DNA of 64,000 bases from Tubulanus polymorphus (lineage: Eukaryota; Animalia; Nemertea): NCBI RefSeq assembly GCF_964204645.1, contig NC_134031.1, positions 12,881,607-12,945,606 of the forward strand, given 5' to 3'. Under the pieces are notes generated by a model. It made no database searches and was not told where the DNA came from. It was given only the letters and a program-made list of their open reading frames with translations. The position numbers and the translations under genes were made by a program. Positions 1,439-46,134 of this stretch are shown piece by piece (the stretch's first letter is position 1; each line of letters opens with the position of its first letter).

Positions 1439-1542
1439 TATTACATGATTAATGTTAATTTCATTTCTTTCTCACGTTTAAAATCAAATCCAAAACATAT
1501 ACTCGGTCCAACAGTTATATTCATTTATATAATGAAAACAAA

Positions 1543-2263: not shown

Positions 2264-2277
2264 TTATTTTACATATT

Positions 2278-2608
2278 TTATTCAAAATCTATTTCGTGGT
2301 GCCCTTTTCCATTCTTACCTTTACATATGAAATAGAAATCACATGAACATAATTCTTCTAAATCTATCTGGTAAATATGTTCTGAATTTAAATCTATTTC
2401 CTTTTAATCCTTCATATTCTAAGTGGATAACTAATTTATCTCCATATTTGTTAGGAACTGTATCAATATTTGTAATTAGATATTTCTTATGAATTGTTAG
2501 TTCATTTAATTTTTTAAATTTATAATCTACTGATTTAGCATTTGTGATATCTTTAATTCTATCTAGAAATGATTTGTTGTTCTCACTGTTTGCTTGTTTA
2601 CTCTCCAT
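2278..2608 (-). pseudogene. Small protein homologous to the right-terminal gene 45717-46043 (possibly an OB-fold nucleic-acid-binding protein), frameshifted
   Basis: KKL..L...KYGDKL..L.Y...F..YLPDRF; after a frameshift it continues FICKGKNGKGHHEIDFE*, versus IYHGKNEDGHHDLEIVD* in the 45717 gene. The fold is inferred. Confidence 0.7.
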
Positions 2609-2644
2609 TTATTATACATATTTTTATTAAAATTGAATCAAAGC

Positions 2645-2860
2645 CGATTAACATGTTAGAATCCTTTTCATAATCTCATTCTCTTTTGTTTCTTCTCTTT
2701 TAAATTTTAAGTATTCATCTAAATTTCAACCATAAGCGACTCTATGAATTCCATCATCTAAAATATATCTTTTATCGTCAAATGGGTTTAGACTTATCTT
2801 CTCTATCTCTTCAATAAACATCTCGTGATCTTCAGATCTGAAACATTTCATCTTACGTTT
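2645..2860 (-). pseudogene. Second, diverged copy of the polB 3' end
   Basis: Direct-repeat similarity to ~3088-3300. Encodes KMKCFRSEDHEMFIEEIEKISLNPFDDKRYILDDGIH. Confidence 0.85.
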
Positions 2861-3079
2861 AGATATTGCTTGGTATATAGTTTAATACAAGTTTTGCAGC
2901 AATATTGTAATCTTACGCTTACTAAATTCTGTTATAGCTAATTTATCTAATTCACATTTAGAACATTTCTTGTAGTATATATTTATAACACCAGTGTTAT
3001 TTCTAATATTGATAGTTTGTGATTGTTCTGGCTCCATTTATTATACATATCTTTACTAAATTATATACTCATATTTTTA

Positions 3080-4417
3080 CTAAAATTTGATTAACACGCT
3101 AGAATCCTTTTTAAAATGCCATTCTCTTTTTTTTCTTTTAAATCTTAAGTATTCATCTAAATTGCAACCATACGCGACTGTATGAATTCCGTCATCTAAA
3201 ATATATCTTTTCTCGTCAAATGGGTTCAAACTAACCTTTTCTATCTCTTCAATAAACATTTCATGATCTTCAGAACTTAAAAATTTCATCTTATGTTTTC
3301 TAACTTCTTCATTGAATATACAATTGATGTAATCTTTGAAATGGATATTCTTTTCTACTACACTTTTAGTAATTCCTTTCAATTTCTTTGATTCATGAGT
3401 TTTGGTTTTATAACTATACATTTTAGATCGAATTCCAATGAACTCTATCATTTCTTCACCTCCTAATTCATCTTTGAATTTACCGGGCACCTTTTCATTA
3501 TCGTTGCTAAAAAATTCATGAGTTTTAGGATAATTACTGAAATCAAAATGATGTTTTAATGTTTTTAAATCATCTGTTATGTTATTAGTTTTTATCTTTA
3601 ATATGTAACTGTCAGTATCAAAATATAAGATTTCTATATGCTTTTCTCCAAAATGAGTTTGTAATACGTTATAGTAAAATTCATACATCAATAATTTTGA
3701 TATTTCTAAAACTGCAGCTCCAACATAGATTGGTTTATTAAACTTCATAGAAGTTCTTCTCATTTTAACTGCAGCTAAATTTTCATCAAATATTCTGTTA
3801 CCTTTAAACTTGGGATATGTTTGTAAATGTCTAATTCTTTTACCATTACTAACTAACTAATTATATCATTTCTATTTCTAATATTCTCACAAGTCTTACC
3901 ATAAAATGCATTGTTCATTAACTTGAAGAAATCTTTTTCGAAATCAGTTTTAGCTTTAGTTCTCTGTTTGGTGTTAAAATCTATATATTTTTCTAACCAT
4001 TTAGATTGTCTGAATGAAATATATCTGTGTACTTTTTTAGAAACATTCCTTGATTCAAATAAAACTTCAACATTCTATAATGTACTACATAATTATATCT
4101 ATTTTCCTGAGTTACCATTGACTTTTCAGTATCAATATGATTTGCGGGTTTAATTCTTTTTTGATAATTTGATAACTCTTCATGTGTTACAGTTTTATGT
4201 TCGGGACAGTATGCTAGATTTCTAGATTTAAATCTTTTTATCTTCAGGGTATTCTAAATCTACAACAAAGAAGTATCCAGTAACTGAATCATCCGCAATA
4301 TCTAGAATTATTTGCTTCCAATCAAATTTATCATTATTTTCATACTTCAGTTATTTCAAATACTCCATAAGGCTGAGGTTCCACCATTGCCCAACCATAT
4401 AGATTATATGCATCTAT
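3080..4417 (-). pseudogene. polB: Protein-primed PolB, C-terminal half, intein-free allele
   Basis: Motif A remnant at ~4385-4417, motif B KLMNNAFYGKT near 3890-3925, uninterrupted motif C YFDTDS (3608-3625), then PGKFKDE and KSVV...NPFD. Frameshifts and stops upstream of 3763. Confidence 0.93.
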
Positions 4418-28400: not shown

Positions 28401-28846
28401 GGAAAAGCACTTTTCGACCCGTAAACGTCGTTCAGCGCGAGAAAAGACGTTTTCGTATCAAATATTCCCCCTATGGGAAAAACGACAATGTCGATGCGTA
28501 AAAGCGCTCAAATCGTCAGGAAAAGCACTTTTCGACCCGTAAACGTCGTTCAGCGCGAGAAAAGACGTTTTCTTATCAAATTTTCCCCCTGTCGGAAAAA
28601 CGGCAATGTCGATGCGTAAAAGCGCTCAAATCGTCAGGAAAAGCACTTTTCGACGCGAAAACGTCGTTCAGCGCGAGAAAAGACATTTTCTTATCAAATT
28701 TTTCCCCTGTCGGAAAAATGATAATGTCGATGCGTAAAAGCGCTCAAATCGTCAGGAAAAGCACTTTTCGACCCGAAAACGTCGTTCAGCGCGAGAAATG
28801 AAATTTTCTTATCAAATTTTTCCCCTGTCGGAAAAATGATAATGTC
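4414..28846. repeat. 118-bp tandem satellite array, left arm (~207 monomers)
   Basis: Monomer ~GAAAAACGACAATGTCGATGCGTAAAAGCGCTCAAATCGTCAGGAAAAGCACTTTTCGACCCGAAAACGTCGTTCAGCGCGAGAAAAGACGTTTTCGTATCAAATATTCCCCCTAT(C/G)G. Period 118 (e.g. AATGTCGATG at 7851 and 7969), head-to-tail in one orientation. Confidence 0.99.
28841..28846 (+). repeat. Target-site duplication AATGTC (left copy)
   Basis: The same hexamer occurs at 46129-46134. Removing the element plus one copy restores an intact satellite monomer (GATAATGTCGATGCG). A 6-bp TSD is typical of Polintons. Confidence 0.97.
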
Positions 28847-28936
28847 AGTAATTGGAAAAGTGGGCTTTCATACCAGAGGTCGAGAGGTCGAGACACCACT
28901 CATCACCACAAGTAATTTTTTTTCCTTATAAATGGG
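28847..28936 (+). repeat. Left terminal inverted repeat (80 bp perfect; 90 bp with 1 mismatch)
   Basis: Reverse complement of 46039-46128. Includes the polB start codon and a tandem AGAGGTCG x2. Confidence 0.97.
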
Positions 28937-31900
28937 GGAGAATGAACACCAACTAGAAAACAATAATGTCAATAAAAATCAATATTATTGCACATATTGT
29001 AAAAAATACATCGATAAATCCCAAAAATCACGACATGAAAAATCTTCAAATCATATAAAAAATGTTATAGATTTTGAAACTCCAGAAAATTCCAATGAAA
29101 GAAAAGAACGATTAGAAAATATGAATGTGGATGAAATAAAATGTGAAGTTTGTAATGAATTTATAGTAAAAAGGAATTATAATAGACATCTCGAATCACA
29201 AAAACACCATCAAAATTTGAGTAATAATGTTTTAGGAAAAGATTATTTTGACGATAAACCTCAACAAGTAAAAGAATCAACTTCAAAAACTAAATCCATT
29301 TCAAATAAACCTTACATGGAAAATGTTAGAAATTATATTGATTCACTAGAAATAAAAGATACAATTGAAATCTTAGAAACATTACATAGTAAAATTGGTC
29401 CTGCAGCTATTATATTTAGATTTTTTAAAGGTACAACAATAGAAGATTATAGTAAATTTAATGAAATAATAGAAAAAATACTAGATTTGATAACAGATGT
29501 TGAATATCCAAAAATTAGTATCTCTGGGAAAGTAAGTTTTATAAAGTCAGAAGAAAAAATGAGTTATAATATTCAAACACTCTCTGAAGAAATAATTTCA
29601 AAAACACAAATAAAAGAGAAGTTAGAAAAAATATTAAATGAATTTAAACGTCATATTGAAGAAAGATATTTTGAGGGTTCTGGCTTAACATTGAATGAAA
29701 TTATATATTTAGATTTAAATGTTTATAATACAAAAAGGAATAAAACATCAAAAAGTAATAAAATGTTTAAAAATGATTCAAACTTTACAACAGAAAAGGA
29801 TATTAAAGCATCATCTTATATTAAATTACCATTTACAACAAAAGCAGTAATAAATGTTCAAAATGAAGATAATAAATGTTTTCTATGGTCAATTATTAGT
29901 TGTTTACACCAAACAGAAGATATGACGCATAGTTTTAGAATAACAAATTACCGGAAATATGAAACATTATATAAAATTGATCAATATCCAGTAACTATAA
30001 AAATGATTCCTAAAATAGAAAAAGTTAATAATTCAAAAATAAATGTATTTGAATTAATGCAATTACCAAAGACAAAAGGTGAAAATATTAAAGATTATAC
30101 ATTGGAAGCTTTATATTTAACAGAATATTATGATGATGAAAATGCTATAGATTTGTTATATTACAAAAAAGATGAAAATGAACATTATATGTGGTTAAAA
30201 CAAATTGATTTATTCTTTAGAACAGAAAGTGATCATCATCATAAAATTTATCTATGTAGAAAATGTTTATCTAAATTTATGACTGAGAATACATTACTAA
30301 AACATAAAGAATTATGTGATAATAAAGATTTTTGTAAATTAATAATGCCAACAGAAAAAGATTATAAATTGAAATTTACTAATCATAAATTTAAAAATAT
30401 TGTTCCATTTGTAATTTATGGGGATTTTGAATCGTTGAATAAAGAATTAACTAATCAAGATAGAAAAGAAATATATAACAAAAAGCAATTATTAAAATCA
30501 ATGGATAAAGGAAATGAATTAAATGAAGACACAATACAAGACCCACCAATTATAAACACAATTAAAAAAGTTCATCAAAGAGCTGCTGCTTGTGGAATTT
30601 ATATAAAATCAAATTATCCCGAATTATATGAAAGTCAATATATTTCTTTTAGAGGTGAAAATGTAGTTAATGATTTTTGTGATAAAATGATTGAATTAGA
30701 AAGTGATTTTGCAAAATTATTAAACAAAAATAAAAGAATAGTTATGACAAAAGAAGATGAAATTGATTTTAATTATGCAACTCATTGTTGTTACTGTGAA
30801 AAACGTTTTTATTCATTTGATAAAAAAGTTAGAGATCATAATCATTTGAATGGAAAGTTTAGAGGCGCTGCACATGAGAATTGTAATTTGCAAGCAAAGA
30901 AAATCAATTTTGTCCCCATTATATTTCACAATTTATCGGGGTATGACGCGCATTTATTTATCAAACAGTTATGCTATAAAATAGAAGAAATTAATAATGA
31001 AATAGAAAGATTAAATTCAAATAGATCAAAAGATAAAATACCAACTTATAAATTAAAAATACTAGCTAAAACATCTGAAAATTATATTTCATTTCAATTT
31101 GGTTACATTAGATTTTTAGATTCTTATATATTTCTAGCAAGTTCATTAGATAATTTATCAAAAAGTTTAGTTGATAATGATTTTGTTATAACTCGATATT
31201 ATTATCCAAATGACCAAGATTTTAAATTATTGAGATATAAAGGTGCAATTCCTTATTCATTTTATAAAACACATGATGATTTTAATGTAATAGAATTATT
31301 AAAAAATCAATTTTATGATCAATTAAAAGAGGAGTATGTGAAAGACGAAGTTTTTGATAGAACATTAAATATTTGGAACCATTTTAAGATGAAAAATCAT
31401 GGCGAATTAGTTGATTTATATTTAAAATCAGATGTTATGATATTGGCTGACATATTTGAAAAATTTAGAGAAGTTAATTTGAATCATTTTAATGTTGATC
31501 CTTGTTATTGTTATTCTAGCCCAGGATTAACCTGGCAATGTGGTTTAAAATATACAAATGTAGAATTAGATTAATTAAAAGAACCAGATATGGTTTTATT
31601 ATTTGAAAAATCAATTAGAGGTGGAATTAGTGGTGTTATGGGAGATAGGTATTTTAAAGCAAATGATGAATATAAATTATTATATATTGACGCCAATAAT
31701 TTATATGGTTGGGCAATGATGCAACCTCAACCATATAAAAATTTTATATTAACAGAAGTTGAAAATGGTGATAAAACTGATTGGGAAAACGCAATTGCGA
31801 GTTTAAAAGATGAAGCACCAATTGGTTATTTCTTTGTAGTTGATTTAGAATATCCTGAAAATATAAAGTTTAAAACAAGAAACTTACCTTATTGCCCAGA

Positions 31901-34004
31901 ACATTTAACTGTAGATGATAGTTATTTAAGTGAATACCAGAAGAAAATAAAACCGAAAGATCATGTTTTTACAGAAAAATTAATACTTACTCAAAATAAT
32001 AAATACAATTATATTGTTCATTATAGAATGTTAAAATTTTATCTAAAACAAGGAATGAAATTAAAGAAAGTACATAGATATATTGAATTTAATCAATCAA
32101 AGTGGTTAGAAAAATATATAGATTTCAATACTCAACAGAGAACCATATCAAAAACAGATTTTGAAAAAGATTTTTTCAAATTGATGAACAATAGTTTTTA
32201 TGGAAAAACATGTGAAAATATTAGAAATAGAAATGATATTGAATTAGTAAATAATTCTGAAAGATTAAGACATTTACAATCAAGTCCTAGACATTTAGGA
32301 AATAAAAGGTTTGAAGATTATTTAACAGCAGTTAAATTAAAAAGAACATCAATGAAATTTAATAAACCTATATTTATTGGTTCGACTGTTTTAGAAGTAT
32401 CAAAATTATTAATGTATGAATTCTATTGTAATGTTTTACAACCACTTTTTGGGGAAAAGCATATTGAAATATTATATTTTGATTCTGTAACAGCTGACAC
32501 CCCAATATTACTAAAATGTAATAATAAAATATTGGTAAGAAGAATTTCAGAAATAATTCCAAAACAAAATGAATGTTATATTTCATATGGAGAAAAAGAA
32601 TTAATACAAATAAATGGTTTAATGGATGTTTGGACAAGAAATGGATGGAAAAAATTAAAGAATATTATTAGACATAAAACAAATAAGAAAATCTATAGAG
32701 TTAGAACTAAATTAGGGTTCGTAGATGTTACAGAAGATCATAGTTTAATTAAACGAAATGGTGATGAAATAAAACCAACTGATATAAAAATTGGAGATGA
32801 ATTATTACATAAAAGATTTTTCCAAAGAATGAATCATATGTCATTTGATGAAATAATTGATAATATTTATAATATAGAACCCGAAACATTAGAAGAAAAA
32901 GAATATTTTATCAAAGGATTTTTCATGGGTGATGGTTCAGCAGGTGTGTATAATTATGTTAGTGGAACTAAATATTGTTGGTATTTATGCAATCAAGACT
33001 TAAAATTATTAGAAAGAATTAAGAAATTCTGTGAAGAAGTTTATCCAAATAAAACATTCAAAATCATAGATGTTATGAAATCATCGCAATGTTATAGAAT
33101 ACATGTGAATAATCCTAAAGATTTTGCTATAAAATATAATAACGAATTCTATATTCATGCAATAGTGAAAAGTAATACTTCAACTAAAGAAAAGATAGTT
33201 CCAGATTATGTATTGAATGCAAAAAATAATTTAAGAAAATGGTTCTTCATTGGATTCTACGCAGCCGATGGTACTAAAAGTTTCAAAAACCGCAAAACAA
33301 TATCTTTAGCTCAAAAAGGAAAAGTTGCTATATCAGGATTAAATATATTATGCAATTCATTAGGTTTTAATATGAATATTGGATTGATTAAATCTAAACC
33401 AAATTGTTTTAATTTAAGGCATGTAGAAAAAGAATTAACAGAAGAAGTTAAAGATTTATTTGAAATATATAACCCAACTGACTATGTTTATGATTTATCA
33501 ACAGATGATGGAACATTCAATTCTGGGTTCCCATTAATCCAAAAAAATACTGACGCCTACATACTAAAAATCAAGACAAATGACATAACAAAAGACTTAA
33601 AAACATTAAAACATCATTTTGATTTTAGCAATTATCCTAAAGATCATGAACTATTTAGCAATGATAATAAAAAGATTCCTGGTAAATTTAAAGATGAATT
33701 AGGAGGTGATGAAATGATTGAATTTGTTGGGATAAGAAGTAAAATGTATAGTTACAGAACAAAAGATCATGAAGCTAAAAAGTTAAAAGGAATAACTAAA
33801 CATGTGGTTGATAAACATATAGAATTTCAAGATTATATAAAGTGTTTATATAAATCAATTGTAATGAAACACAAAATGAATTGTTTAAGATCAGAAGATC
33901 ATGAGATGTACATTAATGAAGTTGAAAAAACTAGTTTAAATCCATTTGATGATAAAAGGCATATTTTAGATGATGGTATAAAAACATTACCTTATGGCCA
34001 TTAA
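28932..34004 (+). CDS. polB: Protein-primed family B DNA polymerase with an intein; one in-frame TAA at 31572-31574
   Basis: The 880-aa and 804-aa ORFs are in the same frame (VELD*LKEPDM). N-terminal C2H2 fingers; ExoI YGDFES, ExoII FHNLSGYD, ExoIII YLKSDV; EndoVII-like RDHNH..GKFRG..H..CN; IRGG; motif A YIDANNLYG; motif B KLMNNSFYGKT; motif C YFD|TD split by the intein. Confidence 0.96.
32484..33548 (+). mobile_element. Intein (355 aa) with LAGLIDADG homing endonuclease in PolB motif C
   Basis: Block A SVTADTPILL, block B VDVTEDHSL, block C FIKGFFMGDGS, block E FFIGFYAADGT, block F YVYDLST, block G IQKN|T. Precisely absent from the second copy (YFDTDS). Confidence 0.95.
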
Positions 34005-35302
34005 AACATAAAATCAATATCATCATACTCGAAATCACTATTGGCTTCTTCATTTTCATTTAATTGTTCAGGTTCTTCTTCCATTCCATTTTTCTCATTT
34101 AAATAAATTTCTATCTTGTTCCACATTTCATCTCGCTCTCTTTGTTTCTTTTTGTTTGTTAATTCATCAAATGGAATTATAATATCTAGGTTTAAATAAT
34201 TTACAATCTTATTTAAAAAGAATTCATAATTTATTGAATCTGTTATTCTATTTTCCAAATGATACATTAATATTTGTTTAAATATTTTTTTTATATTTTT
34301 CATATCTTCTTCTGTTAATTTAGGTTTTTCATAATAATCGTTAAATAATAAATATAAATACATTTTCTTTTGTTTTGTGTTAAATGTTGGTGGAATAATT
34401 GTTTTTATAATATCTTTTTTAGTTATTTCACCATTTTCATTTTCTATTATTTTCATTTTTTCAAGCCATTTCATATATTCTGGTGTATGATCTTCCATAG
34501 AAAATATTTTAAAAATTTCATCAAGATAATTTAATTTTGGATCTATGAGAAAATCTCTAGTTTTTTCTTCACCTAATAAATTCTTTTGCCATCCACAATC
34601 AACACAAAATAACACAGTACCTTCTTGTCTTAAGGTCGCATAACTACATTGTGGACATTTTCGTTTATAATTTATTGGTAATAGATCTTCATTAAGCTCT
34701 TGGTATTTTCTTACGTTTTCTTTATGTTTTATTGTTCTATTATGTAGATTTGAATTACTTGTTGTAATAACCAATTTACAATATTTACAATAATATGTTT
34801 TTCTTGTTAATTCATTATATTGTTTTTCTAACTTTTCAACTGTTTCTTCATTATCTGGTAACGTTTTCTCATATTTTATTTTTTCTAATAAATTATTTTT
34901 TCTTTCATTGAATTCAGTTTCAAATTTATTAGAAATTTAAACTATATGTACTTTACGAAATTGATGATTCTCCCAATCTTCTATATTTTCAGGGTTATAT
35001 TTTATTCGACAAGGCTCACAGAAATGATCTTTTATATTATCCTTATCATAGAATAAGAAAGGTCTTTTCCAAATAATTTCAGGTTCAACTTCAACAGAAT
35101 TACTATCAACATTAGCCGTTGCGCCATTAATTCTACACTTCTCTGAATGTTTTTTAACATAATTTCTTGAGAATAATTTATTACATTTTGGACAGTTTAT
35201 TTTAGGGGGTTTATAATTTTCATCATGTTTTTTCATATGTCGAGCCTTATTACTTTTTCTTAGAAGTTCACCACAAATTTCGCATGCTATCTTCTCATCC
35301 AT
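34001..35302 (-). CDS. Multi-zinc-finger protein with a C-terminal VLTF3-like (poxvirus late transcription factor 3) region; one in-frame TAA at 34937-34939
   Basis: The 121-aa and 257-aa ORFs are in frame and joined by 54 open codons. Several CxxC..H fingers, a CPQC...CVDCG ribbon, and C-terminal INYEFFLNKIVNYL...KKQRERDEMWNKI, which resembles the VLTF3 C-terminal motif by eye. Confidence 0.68.
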
Positions 35303-35370
35303 TTATTAAGGAAAAATTTTATTAAAATTAATTTTTAGTGATGAGCGGTAATTTTTTTATGTTATAAATA
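35303..35370. promoter_or_regulatory. Divergent promoter region between the VLTF3-like and penton genes
   Basis: A T-run/6-nt/TAAAT motif on both strands, plus GTGATGAGCGGT (35338-35349), which matches the TIR motif GTGATGAGTGGT. Confidence 0.6.
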
Positions 35371-36129
35371 ATGGTAGAATTAAAAGAATACAGAATATTT
35401 ATAGATTCTAGAAAACTTATAAATTATAAATCTCATAATTTATTAGTACAATTAGATAGAGAATTTAAGAATTGTGTAGATTTAAAATTAGTTAATATAA
35501 GTTTATGTAATTCTTTTTATAATATATCGGATAAAACTATTGAACATAGAGCTTTTTTAATTTTTTATAAAGGTAAAAATGAATGGTTCTCTATATTTTT
35601 AAAACCGGGGTCATATAATTTAGATACATTAGCACAAGAAATTAATAGAAAAGCTCGAGCTAAATTAGGAAGTGATTCCAGATTTAGTATTAGAATTTTA
35701 AAAAGTGATAGTTCTAATAAAATAAAGATTAGGTTAGATAATAACGAACAATTTAAATTTACAGTAAGAAAACCTTTAGCTAAACTGTTAGGAATTAACC
35801 CAGATATTGTTACAGCATACGCAGAAGGTAGATCAAACTTAATACCTTTTACACATTTTTATATTTATTGCAATTTAATTGACCCAACAAAAACATTTGA
35901 AGCAACTAAAGATACAATTTGTAATTCTGGTTTACTAAACATTTTACCATTGAAGAATGTTAAACAATTTGGAACGCAAATAAATTATAATTTAGCTGAA
36001 TGTGATTTCAAACCTTGTATTCCGCATTTCAATAATTTTAAATTACAAATAAGAAATCACAATGGTTATTTAATTGATTTGAATAACTTTCCTGTAATTT
36101 ATGAATTAGTTATAAGATGTAAAGAGTAA
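35371..36129 (+). CDS. Putative minor capsid protein (penton, single jelly-roll)
   Basis: 252 aa. IFIDSR, NSFYNI, PGSYNL, FYIYCNLI and LQIRNHNGYLIDLNN patterns are typical of Polinton/PLV pentons (recognised by eye). Confidence 0.75.
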   Translation: MVELKEYRIFIDSRKLINYKSHNLLVQLDREFKNCVDLKLVNISLCNSFYNISDKTIEHRAFLIFYKGKNEWFSIFLKPGSYNLDTLAQEINRKARAKLGSDSRFSIRILKSDSSNKIKIRLDNNEQFKFTVRKPLAKLLGINPDIVTAYAEGRSNLIPFTHFYIYCNLIDPTKTFEATKDTICNSGLLNILPLKNVKQFGTQINYNLAECDFKPCIPHFNNFKLQIRNHNGYLIDLNNFPVIYELVIRCKE

Positions 36130-36145
36130 TTTTTCACCTATATAA

Positions 36146-36490
36146 ATGAATATAACTGTTGGACCGAGTATATGTTTTGGATTTGATTTTAAACGTGAGA
36201 AAGAAATGAAATTTAACATGAATGATGTAATTACACATATCAAAAATATTGCATTTTCTAATGAAACAACATTTGAGTATGAAACAACAATTGATAAAGA
36301 AACTTTTAATGTAGAAAAGATTACCGAGTCTTTAAGATTTTATGAATTAGATGAAGATTTTATCATCGATGATATTAAAAAAATAATAATTGAAATATAT
36401 ACAAATGAAACTAGTAATAAAATAAATGTTGAATTAATAATCACTAAGATAACTAAATATTTTGATGATAGTAATTTTTTTGATAAATAA
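36146..36490 (+). CDS. Hypothetical acidic protein, 114 aa
   Basis: Intact ORF with a TAAATG start; the 5' end is conserved in the second copy (1440-1524). Confidence 0.75.
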   Translation: MNITVGPSICFGFDFKREKEMKFNMNDVITHIKNIAFSNETTFEYETTIDKETFNVEKITESLRFYELDEDFIIDDIKKIIIEIYTNETSNKINVELIITKITKYFDDSNFFDK

Positions 36491-36712
36491 ATGAGTGATA
36501 ATAAGTGGATAATAACTGGATTATATAATGGCGCATTACTATCAGTTGGAACGGTTGGTTATTCAATGGTATTAAAAAAAGTATTCAAAATGGGAAGTGT
36601 TAATGTTGATAGATTTGATATAAATGATATTTTAAAGTTAACATTAGCAGTTACTTTATCTAATTTAACAATTGATTATTTGGAAAAACAAAAATATATT
36701 CCTCCCATATAA
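36491..36712 (+). CDS. Small hydrophobic protein, 73 aa
   Basis: TAAATG start abutting the previous stop; two hydrophobic helices. Confidence 0.75.
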   Translation: MSDNKWIITGLYNGALLSVGTVGYSMVLKKVFKMGSVNVDRFDINDILKLTLAVTLSNLTIDYLEKQKYIPPI

Positions 36713-36737
36713 ATACATAATTTTTTTTGCTAAATAA

Positions 36738-37160
36738 ATGGCTTCTGCAATTATAACTATTATAGGATCGGCAATTGTTAACGCTTTAGCATTTACTGGT
36801 GGTGGTTATTTATTTAAACATATTGATAAAAATAGTTCATTAGGAGAACAAAGAAGACATAACTTAGCGTTAGAGAAATACAATAAAGCTGCAGAAGAAT
36901 ATAGAGAAAAGAGACAAAACTATATGGATTACATCAATAAAGAATTATATTATCAGAAGATTTCACATAGAGATTTTCAATCAGTTGATGATGCAATGAG
37001 TTTATATAACGCAGTAACAAATAAAGAAAAATTACATCTATACAAACCTAAATTATCAGATTATTATACCCCAAGTAAAGAACAACAGAAATATGAAATA
37101 ATATGGATTTTAGGTGGAACTGTTATTGTTATATTTGTTGCTTATAAGTTTACTAATTAG
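36738..37160 (+). CDS. Membrane-associated protein, 140 aa (N-terminal hydrophobic helix, coiled coil, C-terminal TM)
   Basis: MASAIITIIGSAIVNALAFTGGGYLF...EQRRHNLALEK...IIWILGGTVIVIFVAY; TAAATG start. Confidence 0.8.
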   Translation: MASAIITIIGSAIVNALAFTGGGYLFKHIDKNSSLGEQRRHNLALEKYNKAAEEYREKRQNYMDYINKELYYQKISHRDFQSVDDAMSLYNAVTNKEKLHLYKPKLSDYYTPSKEQQKYEIIWILGGTVIVIFVAYKFTN

Positions 37161-37181
37161 TAATTTTTTTTTGCTAAATAA

Positions 37182-37616
37182 ATGGAAGATAAAGTTGATA
37201 ATATTGATATTATTCCTCATGATATAAATAAAACTAAATTAAAAACATATTTAGAAAAACAAATATTAGAATTTGAAAGTGTCTTAAAGATAAAAAAGAA
37301 AAAATATTTAAAAAGTAAAATTATATATTATCTTATTATTAGTGGTTCGGTTACAATTAGTTCTGTAATAACATTTTTAGCAATATTCAGTCCATTAACA
37401 CCTTTAGCTATATCAATTGGTGTATTAGGATTAAGTTCAAGTGTTTTAACTGGTATAAGTTCAAAATTAAATATAAAAAGTAATAAAGAAAAAATAAAAT
37501 CTAATATAAAAGAAATTAATAAATTAAAGAACACACTAGATTATATAATAAGTTTAAATGGTCATATAACAGTTGAAGAACAAGATAAATTATTAAAAGA
37601 ATTAATAAATTATTAA
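37182..37616 (+). CDS. Two-TM membrane protein, 144 aa
   Basis: A central hydrophobic hairpin flanked by Lys-rich helices; TAAATG start. Confidence 0.8.
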   Translation: MEDKVDNIDIIPHDINKTKLKTYLEKQILEFESVLKIKKKKYLKSKIIYYLIISGSVTISSVITFLAIFSPLTPLAISIGVLGLSSSVLTGISSKLNIKSNKEKIKSNIKEINKLKNTLDYIISLNGHITVEEQDKLLKELINY

Positions 37617-37633
37617 TTTTTTTAATTATATAA

Positions 37634-39022
37634 ATGGTAGATAGTTTTCCAAAAGCTTTCCAATATAATAAATCAATTAAATATAATATTCCAGCAATAG
37701 ATTTTAATAAAGATATTACATATAGAAATGAAGTTTTAGATTCATTAACTAATTTAGAAATTTATGTTACTGAAACTAATAATTTTAATGCAAAGATGGA
37801 AAATATATTTCATATATATTTAATTAATTTTAAAAAATTGAAAGATGAAAAACAATGGTTATTAAAATCTAATATGAAGTATTGGCAGAATCAATTAAAT
37901 TTTGCTGTTTATTGTGCAACAACAGGATGTGGAATTAGTTGGAATGATCATTTAAATAATTCTAAATATAAACTAATTTAAAGTTTATTTAGATTTCATA
38001 CATACTTTCAAATCAGAATAATATTAAATGAATTAGAGTGCGCTTTACCAGGATCTAGGTATTTCAAAGAATTAGATAATAATATTAATTTATCTAAGTT
38101 TTATAAGATTTGCAATGAATTTAATATAGATATAAATAATTCTGATTTTAGAACAAAAATTGGAACAATAAGATCACTTCCATGCCCTAGAAAGATTGCA
38201 GAATATTGTGCACTTCCCATACCATCTAATAGTTTTTATAATATCTATAATAATAAATTAGGTTATGGTAAAATAGAAACAAAGGATTTAGAAACATTAA
38301 ATTTCAATAAATTACCAAAATTTTATGATAATTTAAAACAAGATAATAATAATGGTTGGGTATATTTTATTTTAGAAAATAGTGAAGGTTTTACAAAATC
38401 AGGTATAGAAAGAATAAATCAATCTATTAGAACTTATTTGATATGTATTTTAGGTGCGCAAGTTGAAACAAGATCACCGATAATTGGAAATTTGAATACA
38501 TCATTCGATACACAAAAACAATTTAAAGTTTTATTTGAAGATTCCATACATAATGATAAAAATAGATCAATTTCAGAAAACATTATAAGATATCAAAATT
38601 ATTTAGATAAATCTCATGTAAGACTTAATTATTGTATAGGCCCTAATCTATTAATTATTTCTAATGATTTAGTATTGAAGATGGGAAATATAATTGGTTA
38701 TAATAATCTAATTAAAACTGCGACAATAAATAAATCATTTGGGTTAAATGATATAAATAAAAAGATTATCACTGCTCCAAAATTAATGGAAGGTGAAAAA
38801 AATAAAAAACACATTCAATCAACAGAAACTAAAACTAAGAATATTAAATTAAATAATGATTCTAAAATAAAAGATTACAATACATCAGAAAATATAAAAA
38901 CTGATAAAATTCAACATGATATAATTAAACTAAATGATGATAATAAATCCCATGAAAATACTAAATTAGCTATAACTTGTATAGGAATTGTAATCGGAGG
39001 AATATTATATTTTAAATTTTAA
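37634..39022 (+). CDS. Conserved Polinton hypothetical protein (462 codons, C-terminal TM); in-frame TAA at 37979-37981
   Basis: The 115-aa and 194-aa ORFs are in frame and the interval between them is open. The second copy has CAA (KLIQSLF) at the stop position. Confidence 0.88.
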
Positions 39023-39038
39023 TTTTTTTATTATGTAA

Positions 39039-40483
39039 ATGGATGTAGAAGGTGGAGAAGATTATGAAATGGGAGAAATGGGAAATAATAATGAAGGATA
39101 TATTGATGATGATTATAATGATGCAGAAACTAATATTGATAATGATGATGAATCAGCATATAATTCTAATTTAACTACACCTCAATATATTGATAAAACA
39201 CGTTCAAAGATAAGTATTGAAAATGAAGTACCAGAAATAACAGAAAAAGAATTCAATTATAATGAAATTATTCATGAATTTAAACCAATATTAAAAAGAT
39301 CTGGTTTCAATATAACAAATAAAGGTATGAATTATTTAGTAAAAGATTTAAAATATTTAAATGGTGATTATTATTGGAAATTGAAAGGCGACTATTATTT
39401 TAAGATTTCAAATCTTAAAAGTAGCGATAAAATAATAACACAATCAACTTTTAATTTATTTAAACCAGATAGAATTAAGAAAATCATTGATGATGTTATA
39501 ACTGATGTTACACAAGAAGAAAGAGATTATAATATAAAAGAATTTAAACAAAGAAATGCTAATTTTTTTAAGATAATTAATGAAAATTTAAGACAAAAAA
39601 AATTCCTAAAGAAGTTATTAATTCCAAAACTAGTAAACCTAATTCAAGCGAAGTTCAAACTGAAAAACTTTTACCAAATGGATTACTTGATGCAACAGAT
39701 CAACAATTAGAAGATTTAAATATATTTTCTGATAAAGCAATTAGAGAAATTATTAGTATAAGACTTGCATCTAATAAAATTGCGCATGATAAAAGTATAA
39801 GAGATTTTAAAATTAGAACTTTAGAAAAAGAATTAACTGATAAAAATAAAGAAATAGAACAATTAAAGTCTGATTTAGATCATCAAGTAATTGATGAAAT
39901 AGAATATAAGCAAAAAGAATTACGTTTAGAAAAAGAAATAGATGATTTAAAATTTAACAAAGAATTACAAAAAGAAGAAAGAGATACATTGTTAAAATCA
40001 TATGATTATAATATTAATAGATTAAAAGTTATTTTTAAAGATTTGTTGATAAAACCAGATTCTGAAATATCATTAAAAGACAGGATGAAGTTATTATTTA
40101 AATTAGAAGGAATAACAATTCTTTCAATTCTAACAGCTGTAACTATGTTATTTACAACAATTGGTTTAGCTATATCAAATGCTTTAAAATATACTCCTCC
40201 TACTCCCAATAAACCAGATAAACCTCCAGGCAATAATTCTATACAAGATAAAGTTAAAGATGGTTTAAAGAAATTAGCAAAATATTTATGGGAATTATCT
40301 AAAAAATCTGCTGCAGCATTGCCAGGAGTTGTTGCATCAATTGTTGGTTTTATATTGAAATCTGCAGGTAATATTCTTAACTTTGCTGCTGAACATATAA
40401 TTTTATTTTTAATCACAGTTGTAAGTGCTATTATTTTTGGGTTAGTAAATATGATATCAAAAAGATATCAAGAAAAAAAATAA
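39039..40483 (+). CDS. Acidic N-terminus/coiled-coil/multi-TM protein (~480 aa); frameshift in an A8 run at 39595-39602
   Basis: The -1 frame is open from the A-run (KIPKEVINSK...ERDTLLKSY) into ORF 39989-40483, which carries hydrophobic and amphipathic helices. Confidence 0.8.
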
Positions 40484-40517
40484 TAAAAAATAAATAATTA
40501 ATTTTTTTGTTTAATAA

Positions 40518-41765
40518 ATGAGCGGGAGTTATATAAGTCCTTCTAAGATTTCTAGAATATCTAATGCTATTAAAGCAGAAAGATCACATCATATAATTAC
40601 TCATAACCCTTCAAATATTAATCCCGATGAAACTTTATATGTTAGAATTCCGAGATTAACACAAAATACTTTTTATGTTCCAAATAGTATTTATTTATCA
40701 GCTGATATAAAAGTAACTGGTCATGATAATAATTATGTTGACGATAATGTTGGGAGATATTTGATTAAAAAATTAATTATAAAGATTGGTCTAGAAACAC
40801 TTTTCTCATTAGATGATTATAATTTATTTATGCATTATAAAGATTTATGGTTAACTAAAGAAAATAGAAATAATATGATATTTCAAGGAATCCAATCAGA
40901 AAACCAAAATAAATTAAGATCTGAAGCCAATAACGCAGTAGTAAATAATGACGTAGATAATTTGATTAAAAAGATTTATGGAAGCAAATATAAAATTCCA
41001 TTAGATTTTGAATTGATAAATAATAATGCACCTTTATATAAATACGCAATTCAAGAAGATATTATATTTGAGATAACATTTGCTCCTGTAAATGAAATTG
41101 TATTATCTAGCGTTGTTAAAGATATGAGTTATAAATTATCGAATATATGTTTAGAATATAACACAATAACTAATGAAAATATTGCTAGCACAATTCAAAC
41201 TCAATACAATCAAGGATTTTCATTATTATATGATTATATTGATAAATTTAAAACTGTAACTATTAATGCAAATGATGAAATTATTAATGAGAATATTAAC
41301 TTTCCTAGAAGATCTATTAAAGGTATATTAATATTTTTTACCATTGGAACGTATACTAATGGCGCAATAAAGGTAGATAATTATTATAATCCTGAAATAA
41401 CAAAAGTAGAAATAACTATCGAAGGAATAGCAAATAAAATATTTTGTCAAGGAATGAGAATGATAGATCAATGGGTAGAAATTAAAAAACATTTTATGAA
41501 TGAAAAAATAAAATCATTTGAAAATTGTAATATTAATCAAATTGATTATTATACCGGCAATAAATATGCATTATGGTTAGATTTTAGAACAACAGAGGAT
41601 AATTCATTACATGGTTCTGGGAAAAAACTACAGAACACTAAAGATGGAATACAATTATTTATGAAAAAGAAAAAAGGAAGTTTAAATTTCAAAATGCACA
41701 TTTATATCATATCTGACGCACAATTAAATATTGTAAATTCACAATTAGATAGTATTCAATATTAG
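40518..41765 (+). CDS. Putative major capsid protein (double jelly-roll)
   Basis: Intact 415-aa beta-rich ORF. THNPSNINPDETLYVRIPRL, NICLEY, YNPEITKVEITIEG and ALWLDFRT..DNSLHGSG resemble MCPs of invertebrate Polintons; size and context fit. Confidence 0.78.
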   Translation: MSGSYISPSKISRISNAIKAERSHHIITHNPSNINPDETLYVRIPRLTQNTFYVPNSIYLSADIKVTGHDNNYVDDNVGRYLIKKLIIKIGLETLFSLDDYNLFMHYKDLWLTKENRNNMIFQGIQSENQNKLRSEANNAVVNNDVDNLIKKIYGSKYKIPLDFELINNNAPLYKYAIQEDIIFEITFAPVNEIVLSSVVKDMSYKLSNICLEYNTITNENIASTIQTQYNQGFSLLYDYIDKFKTVTINANDEIINENINFPRRSIKGILIFFTIGTYTNGAIKVDNYYNPEITKVEITIEGIANKIFCQGMRMIDQWVEIKKHFMNEKIKSFENCNINQIDYYTGNKYALWLDFRTTEDNSLHGSGKKLQNTKDGIQLFMKKKKGSLNFKMHIYIISDAQLNIVNSQLDSIQY

Positions 41766-41795
41766 AAATATAAAGTTAAAATTAAGGATATATAA

Positions 41796-42923
41796 ATGGG
41801 TGGTAAAAAAACTCCTAATACTAAAGAACAATATTTAAGAAATTTATGTTACAACCCTGAGAGTTCGGTTGCTTATTCTTTTACTAAAAATATATGGCGT
41901 AAAGTAAAACAAGATAAATTAGATAAGATAATCCCACAAAATTTAGTTAAATATAAAGATATAAATGAATTTATGTTAGAACAACCAACATATACAACAC
42001 ATAAAAAAATTGTTAGAAAATATAAAACTCGTAAAACTATGGTAAGTTATGTAGATCAACAGTGGCAAGGAGATTTAATTGATATGAAAAATGTTAAGAA
42101 AGATAATGATGATTATTGGTGGTTATTGAATATAATTGATATTTTTAGTCGTTATGTATGGAGCTTCCCACTTTATAGAAAAGATGCTGTACAAACATCA
42201 AATGTTTTAAGAAAATTTCTTTCGGATGATAAACTAAATCCAGAAAAAATACAATTTGATGATGGAAAAGAGTTTGATAATTCACTTGTTCATGAACTCT
42301 TAGATAATCATAATATTAAATATTTTTCAACAAAATCAGATAAAAAAGCAGCAGTTGTTGAACGATTTAATAGAACATTAAGAACAAGAATGTGGAAATA
42401 TTTTACAGCAAATAATACTTTTAAATGGATTGATGTTTTACCAAAATTGATAGAAGGATATAATAATTCTTATCATTCTTCTATTGGAATGAAACCTATT
42501 GATGCTAGAAAACCTGAAAATGCTGAAATTGTTTGGAATAATTTATATGGAGCATTTCTTATAGATGATTTTGGTGAACCTAAATTTAAAGTTGGTCAAA
42601 ATGTTAGAATTTCTAAGTATAAAAAGATATTTGACAAAGGATACGATCGAAATTTTACTAGAGAAATATATAAAATAAAAAAGGTAATAACAACAAAACC
42701 ATATGTCTATAAATTAGAAGATTTAGATGGTGAAGAAGTTGATGGCTACTTTTACGAAGAAGAATTAAGTTTAACTACTGAAAATCTAGAACAAGAATAT
42801 AAAATTGAAAAAGTATTAAAAACAAAAACTATTAAAAGAAAAAAATATTCTTTAGTAAAATGGGTTGGATGGCCAGATAAATTCAATAAATGGATATTAT
42901 CAAGTAAAATTAAAAATATATAA
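41796..42923 (+). CDS. int: Retroviral-like (RVE) DDE integrase with C-terminal chromodomain
   Basis: WQGDLID, IDIFSRY, QFDDGKEF, VERFNRTLR; SH3-like KFKVGQNVRI; chromodomain YKIEKVL...LVKWVGWPDKFNKWI. The ORF is intact. Confidence 0.95.
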   Translation: MGGKKTPNTKEQYLRNLCYNPESSVAYSFTKNIWRKVKQDKLDKIIPQNLVKYKDINEFMLEQPTYTTHKKIVRKYKTRKTMVSYVDQQWQGDLIDMKNVKKDNDDYWWLLNIIDIFSRYVWSFPLYRKDAVQTSNVLRKFLSDDKLNPEKIQFDDGKEFDNSLVHELLDNHNIKYFSTKSDKKAAVVERFNRTLRTRMWKYFTANNTFKWIDVLPKLIEGYNNSYHSSIGMKPIDARKPENAEIVWNNLYGAFLIDDFGEPKFKVGQNVRISKYKKIFDKGYDRNFTREIYKIKKVITTKPYVYKLEDLDGEEVDGYFYEEELSLTTENLEQEYKIEKVLKTKTIKRKKYSLVKWVGWPDKFNKWILSSKIKNI

Positions 42924-43532
42924 ATGAACAAGGAATTATTTATATTTGAGCCTCATAATATGTTAATTTCTGGTGTAACAAATTGTGGAAAAACTTATTT
43001 TTTATTAAATTTATTATAAACTGTTTATGAAAACTTTTTTCATAATATAGTATTATTTTGTCCAACATATGAATTTAATCAAACTTATGATAGAAACATT
43101 ACTAGAAATAATAAATTTATTATATTAGATCCTAAAACAGTAAAAGAAAATTTAGATAATTGTATTAAAATAGCAATTGATATTTATAAAGGATCAAATA
43201 CATTATTTATCATAGATGATTGTGCAAATTTACATGATTCAAAAGTTAGAGAAAGTGAGTTATGTTATTTGGCTTTCTCTGGAAGACATTTTGGGATAAC
43301 AACTTGGGTTTTAAATCAAAAATATAATTCAATTGTTAAAGACTTTAGAGAAAACATTAGATTTCTAGTTTTATTTTACAATAAAGATAGAAAATTGCTG
43401 AAAAATGCACTTGAGGAAAATGATATTATTCCACATGATTTACATAATGAATATATGGATAAGTTGAAAAATATTAAAAGATCAAAATTACTATTTAGAT
43501 TACAACACCAATTTAAATATGAATTTATTTAA
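42924..43532 (+). CDS. A32/FtsK-like DNA packaging ATPase; in-frame TAA at 43017-43019
   Basis: Manual translation from ATG 42924 gives Walker A GVTNCGKT, Walker B LFIIDD, the SGRH arginine motif and VLNQ, in frame with ORF 43269-43532. Confidence 0.92.
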
Positions 43533-43539
43533 ATTCAAT

Positions 43540-43790
43540 TAGTTTGTTAATCTAGTTGAATTCTAGTTATTGGTAGTTGTAACAAAAATCAAATAGATTT
43601 AACAATATCTTAACTAGCTTGTTAATCTATTTTAATTCTAGTTACATTCTAGTTGAATTCTAGTTGTTAGTAGTTGGAACAAAAATCAACTAGATTTAAC
43701 AAGAAATAAATAAAAACAACAATATTTCAACTAGCTTGTTAATCTAGTTGAATTCTAGTTACATTCTAGTTAAATTCTAGTTGCAACATC
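43540..43790. repeat. Intergenic palindrome-rich repeat (~96-bp unit x3, 11-bp TTCTAGTTxxA subunits)
   Basis: TCTAGTTGAATTCTAGTT has GAATTC cores at 43558, 43655 and 43750. TTGTTAATCTAGTTGA and TCAACTAGATTTAACAA form inverted arms. Confidence 0.8.
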
Positions 43791-43814
43791 ACAACTAATT
43801 TTTTTGTTATATAA

Positions 43815-44420
43815 ATGGTAGGTGAAAAGAAAATAAAATCTAAAAATGGTGATGTTTCAATTGAAAAAACTTTAGATGATTTAGGAATAACAGAAACAAA
43901 ATTAACTCCAGATGATGGTGCTTTAAATAATGTTACAACAAATAATAATTATGAATATTATCTTTACTGTAAACATCAATTAGAAATATTAATAGCATCT
44001 GGAAAATGTAAAAAATTTGTTGATAAAAATTTAACTTATAATGAATTAGATACAATGAAATCAGTTGAAATTATTAGATTATTTAAGATTTATGAAGCCG
44101 CGAGAACAGCTAGAATTAATGACGCGATATCAGAAAATGTAGTAAAAGGTTATAGTAAATTATGTAATTATATACTACCAATTGAAAATGAAAATAGATT
44201 ATATTCCGATTTAAAAAATGACTATTTAGTTATGACTGAATTAAATAAATGGATTGGATATTTATCATTTCAATTAGGTGGATTTATGACATTATTATCA
44301 ACCGGGGTTATAACATTTTCAAATATTGAAAGTAAAAATATTTCTATAATAAATGAGCGAGGTGAAAGAAGTGAAGGAATTAACTGTGAAGAAAAAACCG
44401 AGAACTCAGAAACAAATTGA
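43815..44420 (+). CDS. Hypothetical protein, 201 aa, hydrophobic near the C-terminus
   Basis: Intact ORF with a T-run/TAAATG start. Confidence 0.8.
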   Translation: MVGEKKIKSKNGDVSIEKTLDDLGITETKLTPDDGALNNVTTNNNYEYYLYCKHQLEILIASGKCKKFVDKNLTYNELDTMKSVEIIRLFKIYEAARTARINDAISENVVKGYSKLCNYILPIENENRLYSDLKNDYLVMTELNKWIGYLSFQLGGFMTLLSTGVITFSNIESKNISIINERGERSEGINCEEKTENSETN

Positions 44421-44709
44421 ATGGTCTCGACAATTAGGAATTAAATCACAAGAATATAAAAAAGCTGTAAAAGAAAAAATAAGTAATAAAAATGGTGAAA
44501 ATATTGTTATTTCTACTCCTTCTGATAGTAGAATATTTGATAAATATTTATATTTTACAGTTGGATTTGTAATTGTATTCATTTTGATTGGGTATGATTG
44601 GTATAAGAAATCAAATAAAATTCATGATATTAGTAATTCTGAACCAACTGCTATCAAAAATGAAAGTACTTCTGAAATTCCGAAATTGATAATAAAAAAA
44701 ATGGATTAA
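44353..44709 (+). CDS. Basic single-TM protein, 118 aa
   Basis: TAAATG start inside the previous gene; KKKPRTQKQIEWSRQLG; TM segment YLYFTVGFVIVFILIGY. Confidence 0.75.
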   Translation: MSEVKEVKELTVKKKPRTQKQIEWSRQLGIKSQEYKKAVKEKISNKNGENIVISTPSDSRIFDKYLYFTVGFVIVFILIGYDWYKKSNKIHDISNSEPTAIKNESTSEIPKLIIKKMD

Positions 44710-44822
44710 TATTTTAGAAAAAAAGCAAAAAAAATAATTGAATATCTCACTACTTTTGTCTATCACTGTGTGGGTGCCGTTTATGGCACCATCTATGCGG
44801 AGCAATTAAATTGTCCAGATAA

Positions 44823-45710
44823 GTCATTTCGGATTCTAGATATTCATTATTTTTATTAATTTATTTTGTTTTTATTTGAATATTTGAATTTGAATTTGTT
44901 AATCAATTAACATAGTAATTGATTACTAATTTGATTAAAAATTATATCATAATTAAGTTAAAAATACATAATTCATTTATCAGTTTTCATTCTTACATTC
45001 TTTTCATTCGGAATAATTTATAATTTCAAATTTCACATATTTTTTTAGCACCAACAACATTTACTTAGGTGTTTTAGCTAAGTATATAAGGTAATTCATT
45101 CAACCACTGGAGTAGCTCTGGCCAGCAGAGGCATTTTGAAAATGCACCTTCGTCCACTCTCCGGGTTTCTCCTTCGGTTTCGAATTTCGAGGTTGGTAGA
45201 AATTACATTAGGCGCCTTTAATATAATGTGATTTCTACCAATCATTGAAGGAGATCTCGGTTGACGTGGGTCGCCGGGGGTGTAAGTAGAAATGACGGGG
45301 GATAAGCGTCCCGTGGCGCCTTTCAATAATGGGATGCTTCTCCCCTGAAAACTCGTAGGTCGAGGATAGGGCAATTTTGCTAAAACTTACCGTAAAAACA
45401 TTGAAATATTCCTTTCAATCACGAGAGAATGATGACTATCCTCCTGTCGTCACGGCCGAGCTAATTTAAATAAACCTCGTTTTCAGCAACTAATGAAAAC
45501 GCAGTAATTCAATACCAGCTAACTGATTTGTGTGTGTTGTATGTACTACGTGCTTATTATAACAACAACGTTGTGCAACACCTGTTTGATTGATCAATAT
45601 TCAAATGAAGCACTCTCTTATAATAATATGTAACAGATGTACTGTATGATTGTAGTTGTTTATAAAACGACTAAGGTCATTTTGGATTCTAGATATTCAT
45701 TATTTCTATT
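44823..45710. repeat. 35-bp direct repeats (44823-44857 and 45676-45710) flanking ~820 bp of apparently non-coding DNA
   Basis: GTCATTT(C/T)GGATTCTAGATATTCATTATTT(T/C)TATT, 33/35 identical. Confidence 0.85.
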
Positions 45711-45716
45711 TCTTAT

Positions 45717-46043
45717 TTAATCAACAATTTCTAAATCATGATGACCGTCTTCATTTTTCCCATGATATATTATTTTAAATCCTACTAAGTCTTTCAATTC
45801 CTCCATACTCAATGAAACCCATTTATCGGGTAAAAACACTTTAAATTCTCGTGATGTACTAACATTACAGTAGCTTAAATTAGCTGATACTTTCTCTCCA
45901 TATTTAGTTTTTATCTTTTCTAATTTCAATATTTTATGTTCAATTTCTTTTGTAACATCAACTAACTTTTTTATTTAAAATTGTTTTTTTGCTGGTTTTA
46001 TTCTGTTATTTATTGTTGCTAAGAATGCTTTTCTATCTCCCAT
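45717..46043 (-). CDS. Small protein (108 codons, possibly OB-fold/SSB-like) starting inside the right TIR; in-frame TAA at 45975-45977
   Basis: MGDRKAFLATINNRIKPAKKQF*IKKLVDVTKEIEHKILKLEKIKTKYGEK..., in frame with ORF 45717-45929. A homolog lies at 2278-2608. Confidence 0.78.
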
Positions 46044-46128
46044 TTATTAGGAAAAAAAATTACTTGTGGTGATGAGTGGTGTCTCGACCTCTCGACCTCT
46101 GGTATGAAAGCCCACTTTTCCAATTACT
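46039..46128 (-). repeat. Right terminal inverted repeat
   Basis: Reverse complement of 28847-28936; ends ...CAATTACT. Confidence 0.97.
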
Positions 46129-46134
46129 AATGTC
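46129..46134 (+). repeat. Target-site duplication AATGTC (right copy)
   Basis: Matches 28841-28846. Confidence 0.97.

Follow-up and report, generated by a model that had tools for sequence, protein, structure and literature searches.

A Pol-c intein clade with predicted homing activity, resident in the protein-primed DNA polymerases of Polintons

Known inteins are spread over prokaryotes, giant viruses, fungi, algae and protists. Pol-c inteins have been described from archaea and Nucleocytoviricota, and the pol-c site was defined in a study in which the Mimivirus PolB carries a 351-aa intein at YGD|TDS, position III (PMC549080, in the available part of that text). Inteins of eukaryotic nuclear genomes have been surveyed in fungi (Prp8 and VMA1), algae and protists, Anaeramoeba among them (PMC5784728; PMC10710043); the available portions of these surveys include no Polintons, place viral inteins in Nucleocytoviricota and unclassified viruses, and infer virus-mediated acquisition of the nuclear inteins, those of DNA polymerases included. 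Metazoan genomes are stated to be free of inteins in the accessible part of a further paper (PMC8529194).

Polinton polymerases have been reported to carry nucleases of other kinds: HNH and VSR inserts occur in nematode, oomycete and mollusc pPolB2, in a paper whose available text uses neither the term 'intein' nor the term 'LAGLIDADG' (PMC10748475). A single sentence elsewhere, citing that paper, speculates that endonuclease inserts of polinton pPolBs stem from intein invasions (PMC11161782, available part), and GIY-YIG and HNH genes of PLVs are described in the accessible text of PMC12220804. Within the open-licence literature of PubMed Central and bioRxiv, we found no Hint/LAGLIDADG intein in a Polinton or in a protein-primed polymerase, as far as the text provided by these sources extends. 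The term 'intein' is absent from the available portions of PMC8502044, PMC11131425, PMC13215967 and bioRxiv 10.64898/2026.06.19.733378, which together with PMC10748475 make up the set of adintovirus, coral-polintovirus, nematode-Polinton, pPolB-mining and PLV-framework papers.

We analysed a stretch of 64,000 nucleotides (the window), in which a 355-residue insert without a single stop codon lies in frame within the PolB gene of a Polinton (positions 32484-33548, forward strand). The insert resembles Mimivirus-type Pol-c inteins in its site, its size (355 compared to 351 aa), Ser1, its terminal Asn, the +1 Thr, the block-B Thr and His, and its LAGLIDADG motifs, to judge from the available text of PMC549080. 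In contrast to the archaeal and Nucleocytoviricota Pol-c inteins, its host is a protein-primed PolB with flanks that are ~20-26% identical to theirs, and it is encoded by an integrated 17-kb Polinton of a eukaryotic chromosome, where theirs belong to archaea and large lytic viruses. Like the eukaryotic inteins of the two surveys, as far as their accessible text describes them, it is nuclear, but those reside in cellular genes of fungi, algae and protists, whereas the Polinton intein rides a multicopy virus-like transposon. With the HNH and VSR inserts of pPolB2 it shares the placement of nuclease domains within Polinton polymerases; however, no Hint domain, LAGLIDADG motif or motif-C position is described for these inserts in the available part of PMC10748475, whereas the window has a complete intein as well as empty alleles. 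We conclude that the insert is a genuine, canonical homing intein of the Pol-c type in new surroundings, one member of a clade resident in Polinton protein-primed polymerases that are integrated in eukaryotic chromosomes, and that this clade shows signs of still moving and probably came from giant viruses.

The original prediction, made from the letters of the window, was of a 355-codon in-frame insert that splits motif C and has Ser1, a block-B TxxH, two LAGLIDADG motifs, block F, a terminal Asn and a +1 Thr, and each of these was found again on re-reading. Ser1 lies immediately 3' of YFD, and Lys354-Asn355 are the last residues, followed by Thr-Asp-Ala. Between these ends we read a Hint N-part, a dodecapeptide two-motif LAGLIDADG homing endonuclease and a Hint C-part, an order given by the translation, profiles and fold alike. 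Block B (TEDH; Thr83 and His86) is at 32730-32741, the first LAGLIDADG motif (GFFMGDG, with Asp150) at 32916-32936 and the second (GFYAADG, with Asp262) at 33252-33272; block F (VYDLST, with Asp337) occupies 33486-33503 and is followed by block G (Lys-Asn) and the +1 Thr of the C-extein, the three together spanning 33486-33551. The Thr and His of block B and the acidic catalytic Asp of each LAGLIDADG motif are retained in 12/12 full-length Polinton-type inteins, as are the splicing and endonuclease catalytic residues in general. A stop-free run of 355 codons has a chance of ~5e-17 given the base composition of the insert itself.

Profile searches and structure modelling agree with this reading. 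The insert scores above the cut-offs of TIGR01445 intein_Nterm (31.1 bits; cut-off 24.5) and Pfam LAGLIDADG_3 (30.7 bits; cut-off 22.5), and below that of Pfam Intein_splicing (27.2 bits; cut-off 35.8; E 3.9e-6), and in the PDB its sequence matches PI-PkoII and a split intein from a PolB. An AlphaFold2 model from 41 sequences reached a pLDDT of 92.5, and its nearest solved folds are TliVMA (7qsu; E 6e-17), PI-PkoII, PI-PfuI and PI-SceI, followed by I-DmoI; the top 13 PDB fold matches are all intein structures, so that the model has a Hint fold, and the two LAGLIDADG helices with their acidic residues take up an I-DmoI/PI-SceI-like fold of homing endonucleases. In viral proteins the model is closest in fold to PolB inteins of giant viruses, with PolBs from a phycodnavirus, Pandoravirus, Marseillevirus and Megavirus as the best matches and a top match that is unnamed. 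The insertion at YFD|TD, that is, at the YxD|TD of motif C, and a closer kinship to Pol-c inteins than to inteins elsewhere bear out the assignment to the Pol-c allele, which had also been predicted. The marks of class-1 inteins are present in the N-terminal Ser, the block-B TxxH, the block-F Asp, the C-terminal Asn and the +1 Thr, and the one mark that is absent is the penultimate His, which is usual but not universal. Sequence and model together identify 32484-33548 as a canonical class-1 intein of Pol-c type whose LAGLIDADG endonuclease looks intact. We are highly confident in predicting standard class-1 protein splicing, which would be obligatory because the insert splits motif C: by established PolB biochemistry, a polymerase left unspliced, with its catalytic motif divided, would be dead.

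The penultimate residue, Lys in this copy, had been singled out as unusual, a view that did not survive comparison with relatives. Among the Polinton-type inteins this residue is His in 8/12, Lys in 3/12 and Ser in 1/12, while in the RNA-primed PolB relatives Lys (35/73) is found alongside His (28/73). Since Lys is frequent among family members, we ruled it out as a mark of oddity or inactivity.

Polintons are recognised by terminal inverted repeats (TIRs) with AG...CT ends, a 6-bp target duplication and a length of 15-25 kb. The element that holds the intein is complete on all of these counts, with a span of 17.3 kb (28847-46128; 24% GC; AGT...ACT ends), a left TIR of 93 bp that begins AGT (28847-28939), a right TIR on the opposite strand that is 98% complementary to it (46036-46128), and identical 6-bp target-site duplications at 28841-28846 and 46129-46134. 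It encodes, all on the forward strand, a protein-primed PolB, a retroviral-type integrase with a chromodomain (41796-42923; rve 40.4 bits, cut-off 32.6) and an A32-like packaging ATPase (42924-43532; Pox_A32 25.7 bits, cut-off 22.8), which bears out the prediction of a Polinton host gene. We take this gene set to resemble that of marine-invertebrate Polintons. A probable double-jelly-roll (DJR) major capsid protein (40518-41765, forward strand) is weakly supported by feature scores of 0.97-0.98 to DJR capsid clusters, with recognition below the reliable level; this candidate had no Pfam match and no relative in viral contigs, P0256 of a coral Polinton did not match it in BLASTP, and its single-sequence fold reached a pLDDT of only 31. 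Two simple motif patterns, applied to 28847-46128, found no adenain-like protease motif. We also observed two zinc-finger ORFs (34001-34936 and 34937-35302) that are oriented opposite to the rest of the element. The element shares with Polintons/Mavericks (adintoviruses), as the available text of PMC8502044 describes them, the pPolB, rve integrase, A32 ATPase, AG...CT TIRs and 6-bp duplication, and probably a DJR capsid.

The element is embedded in a 118-bp satellite array (~43% GC; unit matches 92-94%) that extends over 4414-28846 on its left and resumes at 46129-64000; the satellite had no match in Rfam, and so belongs to no known RNA family. The satellite arrays and the integration marks place the element in a eukaryotic chromosome. 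The satellite holds two Polintons inside 25 kb, the second of which is described below, and may be a region, for instance a pericentromere, where Polinton insertions are favoured or tolerated.

The polymerase gene itself (28932-34004, forward strand), delimited by ORF reading and homology, has 1690 codons with one in-frame stop. A homology search returned 6314 pPolB-like matches among 7989 scored, of which the closest is 73% identical and has an empty intein site; the only named eukaryotic relative is from the coral Stylophora pistillata, at 35% identity. The window has no host gene; this coral relative and the similarity of the gene set to that of marine-invertebrate Polintons make an animal host plausible, and we rate it as more likely than not. 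PF03175 was not matched by the PolB of the window but was matched by relatives at 47-59% identity to it. The segment upstream of the intein had no sequence match in the PDB, and a profile search indicated that the polymerase also bears a weak EndoVII-like insert. In GC content the intein (25.3%) is matched to its host gene (23.3-25.4%).

We confirmed the in-frame stop of the polymerase (31572-31574) in the window sequence, and found that 259/266 reads at this position carry something else; the lesion is therefore confined to this decaying copy. The original prediction had remarked that the intein is stop-free although the host gene has a nonsense codon; both observations hold, but because the polymerase stop is private to this copy, the stop-free intein is no evidence of selection, and we rejected it as such for this copy. 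Further in-frame stops lie at 37979-37981, in an ORF that is continuous in the decayed second copy, and at 43017-43019, just past the Walker A motif of the ATPase, and there is a probable frameshift at 39584-39710. At least three stops thus coexist with TIRs that are 98% identical. This copy is decaying; it can make no polymerase of its own and is usable only as a donor template.

A second Polinton, decayed and rearranged and of a related subfamily, abuts the satellite at 84-4407 on the minus strand and is 76-89% identical to the first in matching stretches. Its polymerase has an empty site, YFD|TDS, between 3617 and 3616 (minus strand), and 26/30 bases that flank this site match those of the filled site. 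Thus, the intein boundaries are exact and in frame, and the intein is absent from homologous alleles.

We surveyed the species' further Polinton copies in a raw DNA run from the same species, of which ~12% was used and from which 7481 reads aligned at ≥85% identity. In 44 raw reads position 32483 is connected directly to Thr-Asp-Ser codons; these reads are empty alleles. They are probably from other subfamilies, since the codons after the site differ from this copy, and among the read joints listed there was no empty allele of exactly this subfamily. Read depth was 120-261 within the intein, every bin of which was covered, compared to 270-588 in the flanking gene. The identities of the aligned reads are spread widely (432 at ≥99%, 2535 at 95-99%, 2228 at 90-95% and 2286 at <90%), which argues for many diverged copies, a large share of them filled. 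Of the variant places inside the intein, 11/16 fall at third codon positions (P = 0.004), an indication of selection that rests on the best-supported 40 of 564 places, 16 of which are inside the intein. Separately, one marine metagenome contained a small share of this DNA, among it 197 bp of the intein that differ at one position, too thin a signal to indicate habitat.

Searches for relatives recovered both Polinton-type inteins and a larger set from RNA-primed polymerases. A search for proteins near the intein in length yielded 45 matches, with flanks inspected in 28 of them; wherever the top 21 (40-78% identical) retain flanks, these are of Polinton type. A search among longer proteins gave 294 matches; among the best 120, 8 are protein-primed and most others are RNA-primed PolBs with PF00136. 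When we instead ranked polymerases by the upstream extein, the best 120 comprised 110 with an empty site, 4 with a filled site and 6 that were uninformative; the automatic rule had scored 107 as empty, 2 as filled and 11 as other, and inspection by eye then moved 3 of these 11 to empty and 2 to filled. A single cluster at 90% identity (136 members) holds both a filled form of 1537 aa and empty forms of 1186-1193 aa, on contigs of up to 1 Mb, as seen among the 15 members listed out of 40 that were read. A search of 1.84 billion representatives gave 2115 matches; the 137 new top representatives have RNA-primed PolB flanks in 118 cases, topoisomerase flanks in 3, unassigned flanks in 16 and pPolB flanks in none. 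Likewise, 200 loci fetched from metagenome, viral and prokaryotic collections had RNA-primed flanks in 181 cases, pPolB flanks in 1 and neither in 18, although scans of these collections say little about Polinton hosts, and the totals of two of the scans are at least those listed. Many relatives of the intein are truncated or frameshifted. To the inteins of giant-virus MAGs the window intein is 41-45% identical.

Several members of the family lie elsewhere. Two archaeal MAG contigs carry Pol-c inteins of giant-virus type (L191:10001-10984 and L194:8531-9514) that are 35-36% identical to the Polinton one, pair together and nest among viral-type inteins; one of the MAGs is labelled Promethearchaeota, and the PolB is either archaeal or misbinned. 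A 342-aa intein of the same family sits at YGD|TDS in the catalytic subunit of Pol delta from the green alga Chloropicon primus (P0143, from NCBI). Type II topoisomerase-like proteins (P0053, P0139, P0145, P0166, P0374, P0466 and P0474) hold inteins of this family, some at a D|TD-like junction, and represent a second, non-allelic jump of the family, while in the glycosyltransferase-like protein P0039 a related intein at LLWMD|...|TD occupies a look-alike target outside polymerases. Among empty Polinton polymerases from ENA, many (P0236-P0307) carry Cys instead of Thr at +1 (YMD|CDS) or are otherwise altered right at the site, which possibly reflects escape from the endonuclease.

To place the Polinton-type inteins among their relatives we used two trees. 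The first was a quick tree of 85 motif-C inteins (290-450 aa), on which all 12 of the Polinton type fall on one side of a branch with SH-aLRT 100. In a careful tree of 44 hand-picked rows, which has a very distant outgroup and short deep nodes, the 8 Polinton-type inteins kept from these 12 form a clade (100/100) whose sister (95/84) comprises 15 rows, 10 from GVMAG giant-virus contigs and 5 unlabelled; one protein of the sister clade matches a GVMAG contig at 99.8% identity. The pPolB and sister clades are enclosed by a further starred node (96/94) among RNA-primed PolB inteins, and the inteins of green-algal Pol delta and the archaeal MAGs fall outside the starred clade of pPolB and GVMAG inteins. 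The giant-virus affinity that had been predicted is therefore upheld by this nesting, by the GVMAG-rich sister clade and by the viral fold matches, and the donor was probably a member of the Nucleocytoviricota. The intein may have passed over in a co-infected cell, as the original prediction supposed, or by way of intermediates.

The predicted transfer was supported, with one refinement: the trees point to a move into a protein-primed PolB, which was an old move into the lineage, not one into this element. Intein and extein diverge from relatives to similar extents (63.5 vs 61.4%, 52.4 vs 49.5% and 45.3 vs 47.3%), and we consider the capture to be old because these distances are alike within the main group and the GC content is matched; recent transfer into this element was rejected on the same grounds. 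The site matches the flanks of giant-virus PolBs at 10-13 of 18 bases only, which makes direct homing from a present-day giant virus unlikely. These comparisons suggest that there was likely a single old jump into the protein-primed PolB lineage, with the intein gained or lost many times since.

Comparisons between filled and empty polymerases show signs of homing. The filled P0049 and the empty P0180 share 98.2% identity outside an exact indel of 346 aa, and 9/22 of their differences lie within 15 residues of the site, compared to 0.55 expected (P = 4e-10), a tract that looks co-conversion-like, as homing would leave. P0185 and P0188 likewise differ by an exact intein-sized indel and by 5 residues in 746. 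On an extein tree of 14 filled and 40 empty hand-picked rows, built from the upstream extein only, filled and empty polymerases are interleaved, with 12 state changes of which 9 are forced by starred branches, and the filled state is no more clustered than shuffled labels. P0051 belongs to another polymerase class (PF03175, 110.9 bits; a very long branch; exteins 27-31% identical), but its intein is 49.7% identical to that of the window and nests beside it (95/82). These patterns make it probable, in our view, that empty Polinton copies have been cleaved and have undergone gene conversion in the recent evolutionary past.

We propose the following course of events. What we observed is that the intein interrupts YxD|TD precisely and in frame, and that filled and empty alleles occur together in this window and in this species. 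Motifs and fold predict that the intein would leave the precursor by an N-O shift at Ser1, transfer to the +1 Thr and cyclisation of the Asn. The endonuclease would cut the motif-C DNA of other, empty Polinton copies, whether these are integrated or linear and replicating; repaired on a filled template, such copies would gain the intein together with some flanking codons. A multicopy transposon family would provide a steady supply of empty alleles, a supply that ordinary single-copy genes lack. The trees suggest that the intein was captured in a single ancestral event from the RNA-primed PolB of a member of the Nucleocytoviricota, aided by the common motif-C sequence, and that cycles of gain and loss and at least one jump to a distant pPolB class may have followed. 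Taken as a whole, this reading of a self-splicing Pol-c intein that homes into empty Polinton copies after one old capture from giant viruses has our good, though not complete, confidence.

Other explanations differ mainly in how the intein was maintained and where it came from. Captured once, it might have descended vertically with the polymerase and been lost precisely and repeatedly, with no recent homing; the similar identities of intein and extein within the main pPolB group, the full match in GC to the host gene, the many degenerate relatives and the mere 4 filled sites among the best 120 polymerases would all fit such a passenger. It would leave unexplained, however, why differences cluster around the site in the 98%-identical pair P0049 and P0180, why the intein of the distant-class P0051 nests inside the clade, why both endonuclease Asp residues are kept in 12/12 inteins and why the extein tree has 9 forced state changes, and we consider purely vertical descent unlikely. 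A donor other than a giant virus, such as a cellular Pol delta or an archaeal PolB, a route via Polinton-like viruses of protists, or passage from Polintons to giant viruses is somewhat less probable again. The presence of the family in Pol delta of C. primus and on the archaeal contigs L191 and L194 could be read this way, as could the short deep nodes and distant root of the tree, but these cellular inteins fall outside the starred clade that joins the pPolB inteins with 10 GVMAG rows, and RNA-primed PolB inteins are far commoner and more diverse than protein-primed ones (181 of 200 loci compared to 1; 118 of 137 representatives compared to none).

That the insert is instead a permanently fused, non-splicing nuclease, comparable to the HNH and VSR inserts of nematode pPolB2, or an artefact of assembly or contamination, seems hardly credible. 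This copy does lack the penultimate His, its Intein_splicing score is under the Pfam cut-off, and Polinton polymerases with fused nucleases are known, according to the available text of PMC10748475. Against this, an unspliced polymerase would be dead with its catalytic motif split, all splicing nucleophiles are kept and Lys is frequent in the family, while the TIRs and the exact 6-bp duplication join the element to satellite DNA, and raw reads of the species cover the intein in every bin. We thus favour a splicing, homing intein of old giant-virus origin. The fullest version of this reading, of a self-splicing homing intein that is active in the nuclear genome of an animal, derives from a giant virus, may still be sweeping through Polinton subfamilies and polymerase classes, and is the first from protein-primed polymerases and from animal genomes, is about evenly balanced between true and false.

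The finding of a whole clade with filled and empty alleles extends the range of inteins to a new polymerase class and a new virus group, and suggests one way for a homing element to last in a chromosome, namely by drawing its targets from a mobile family with many copies. It is also evidence, at the sequence level, that Polintons and giant viruses have exchanged genes, and bears on the open question of a virophage-like life for Polintons, whose virions are rarely seen; conversion tracts around the intein are a direct test of whether integrated Polinton copies continue to encounter one another and recombine. Should the host be an animal, this would be the first intein of animal genomes, and a natural intein and meganuclease adapted to animal cells. 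If its giant-virus origin is true, the intein would be a record of ancestors of animal-type Polintons that shared cells with Nucleocytoviricota, and, if the proposed reading is right, it would be a parasite of a parasite, living off multicopy Polintons.
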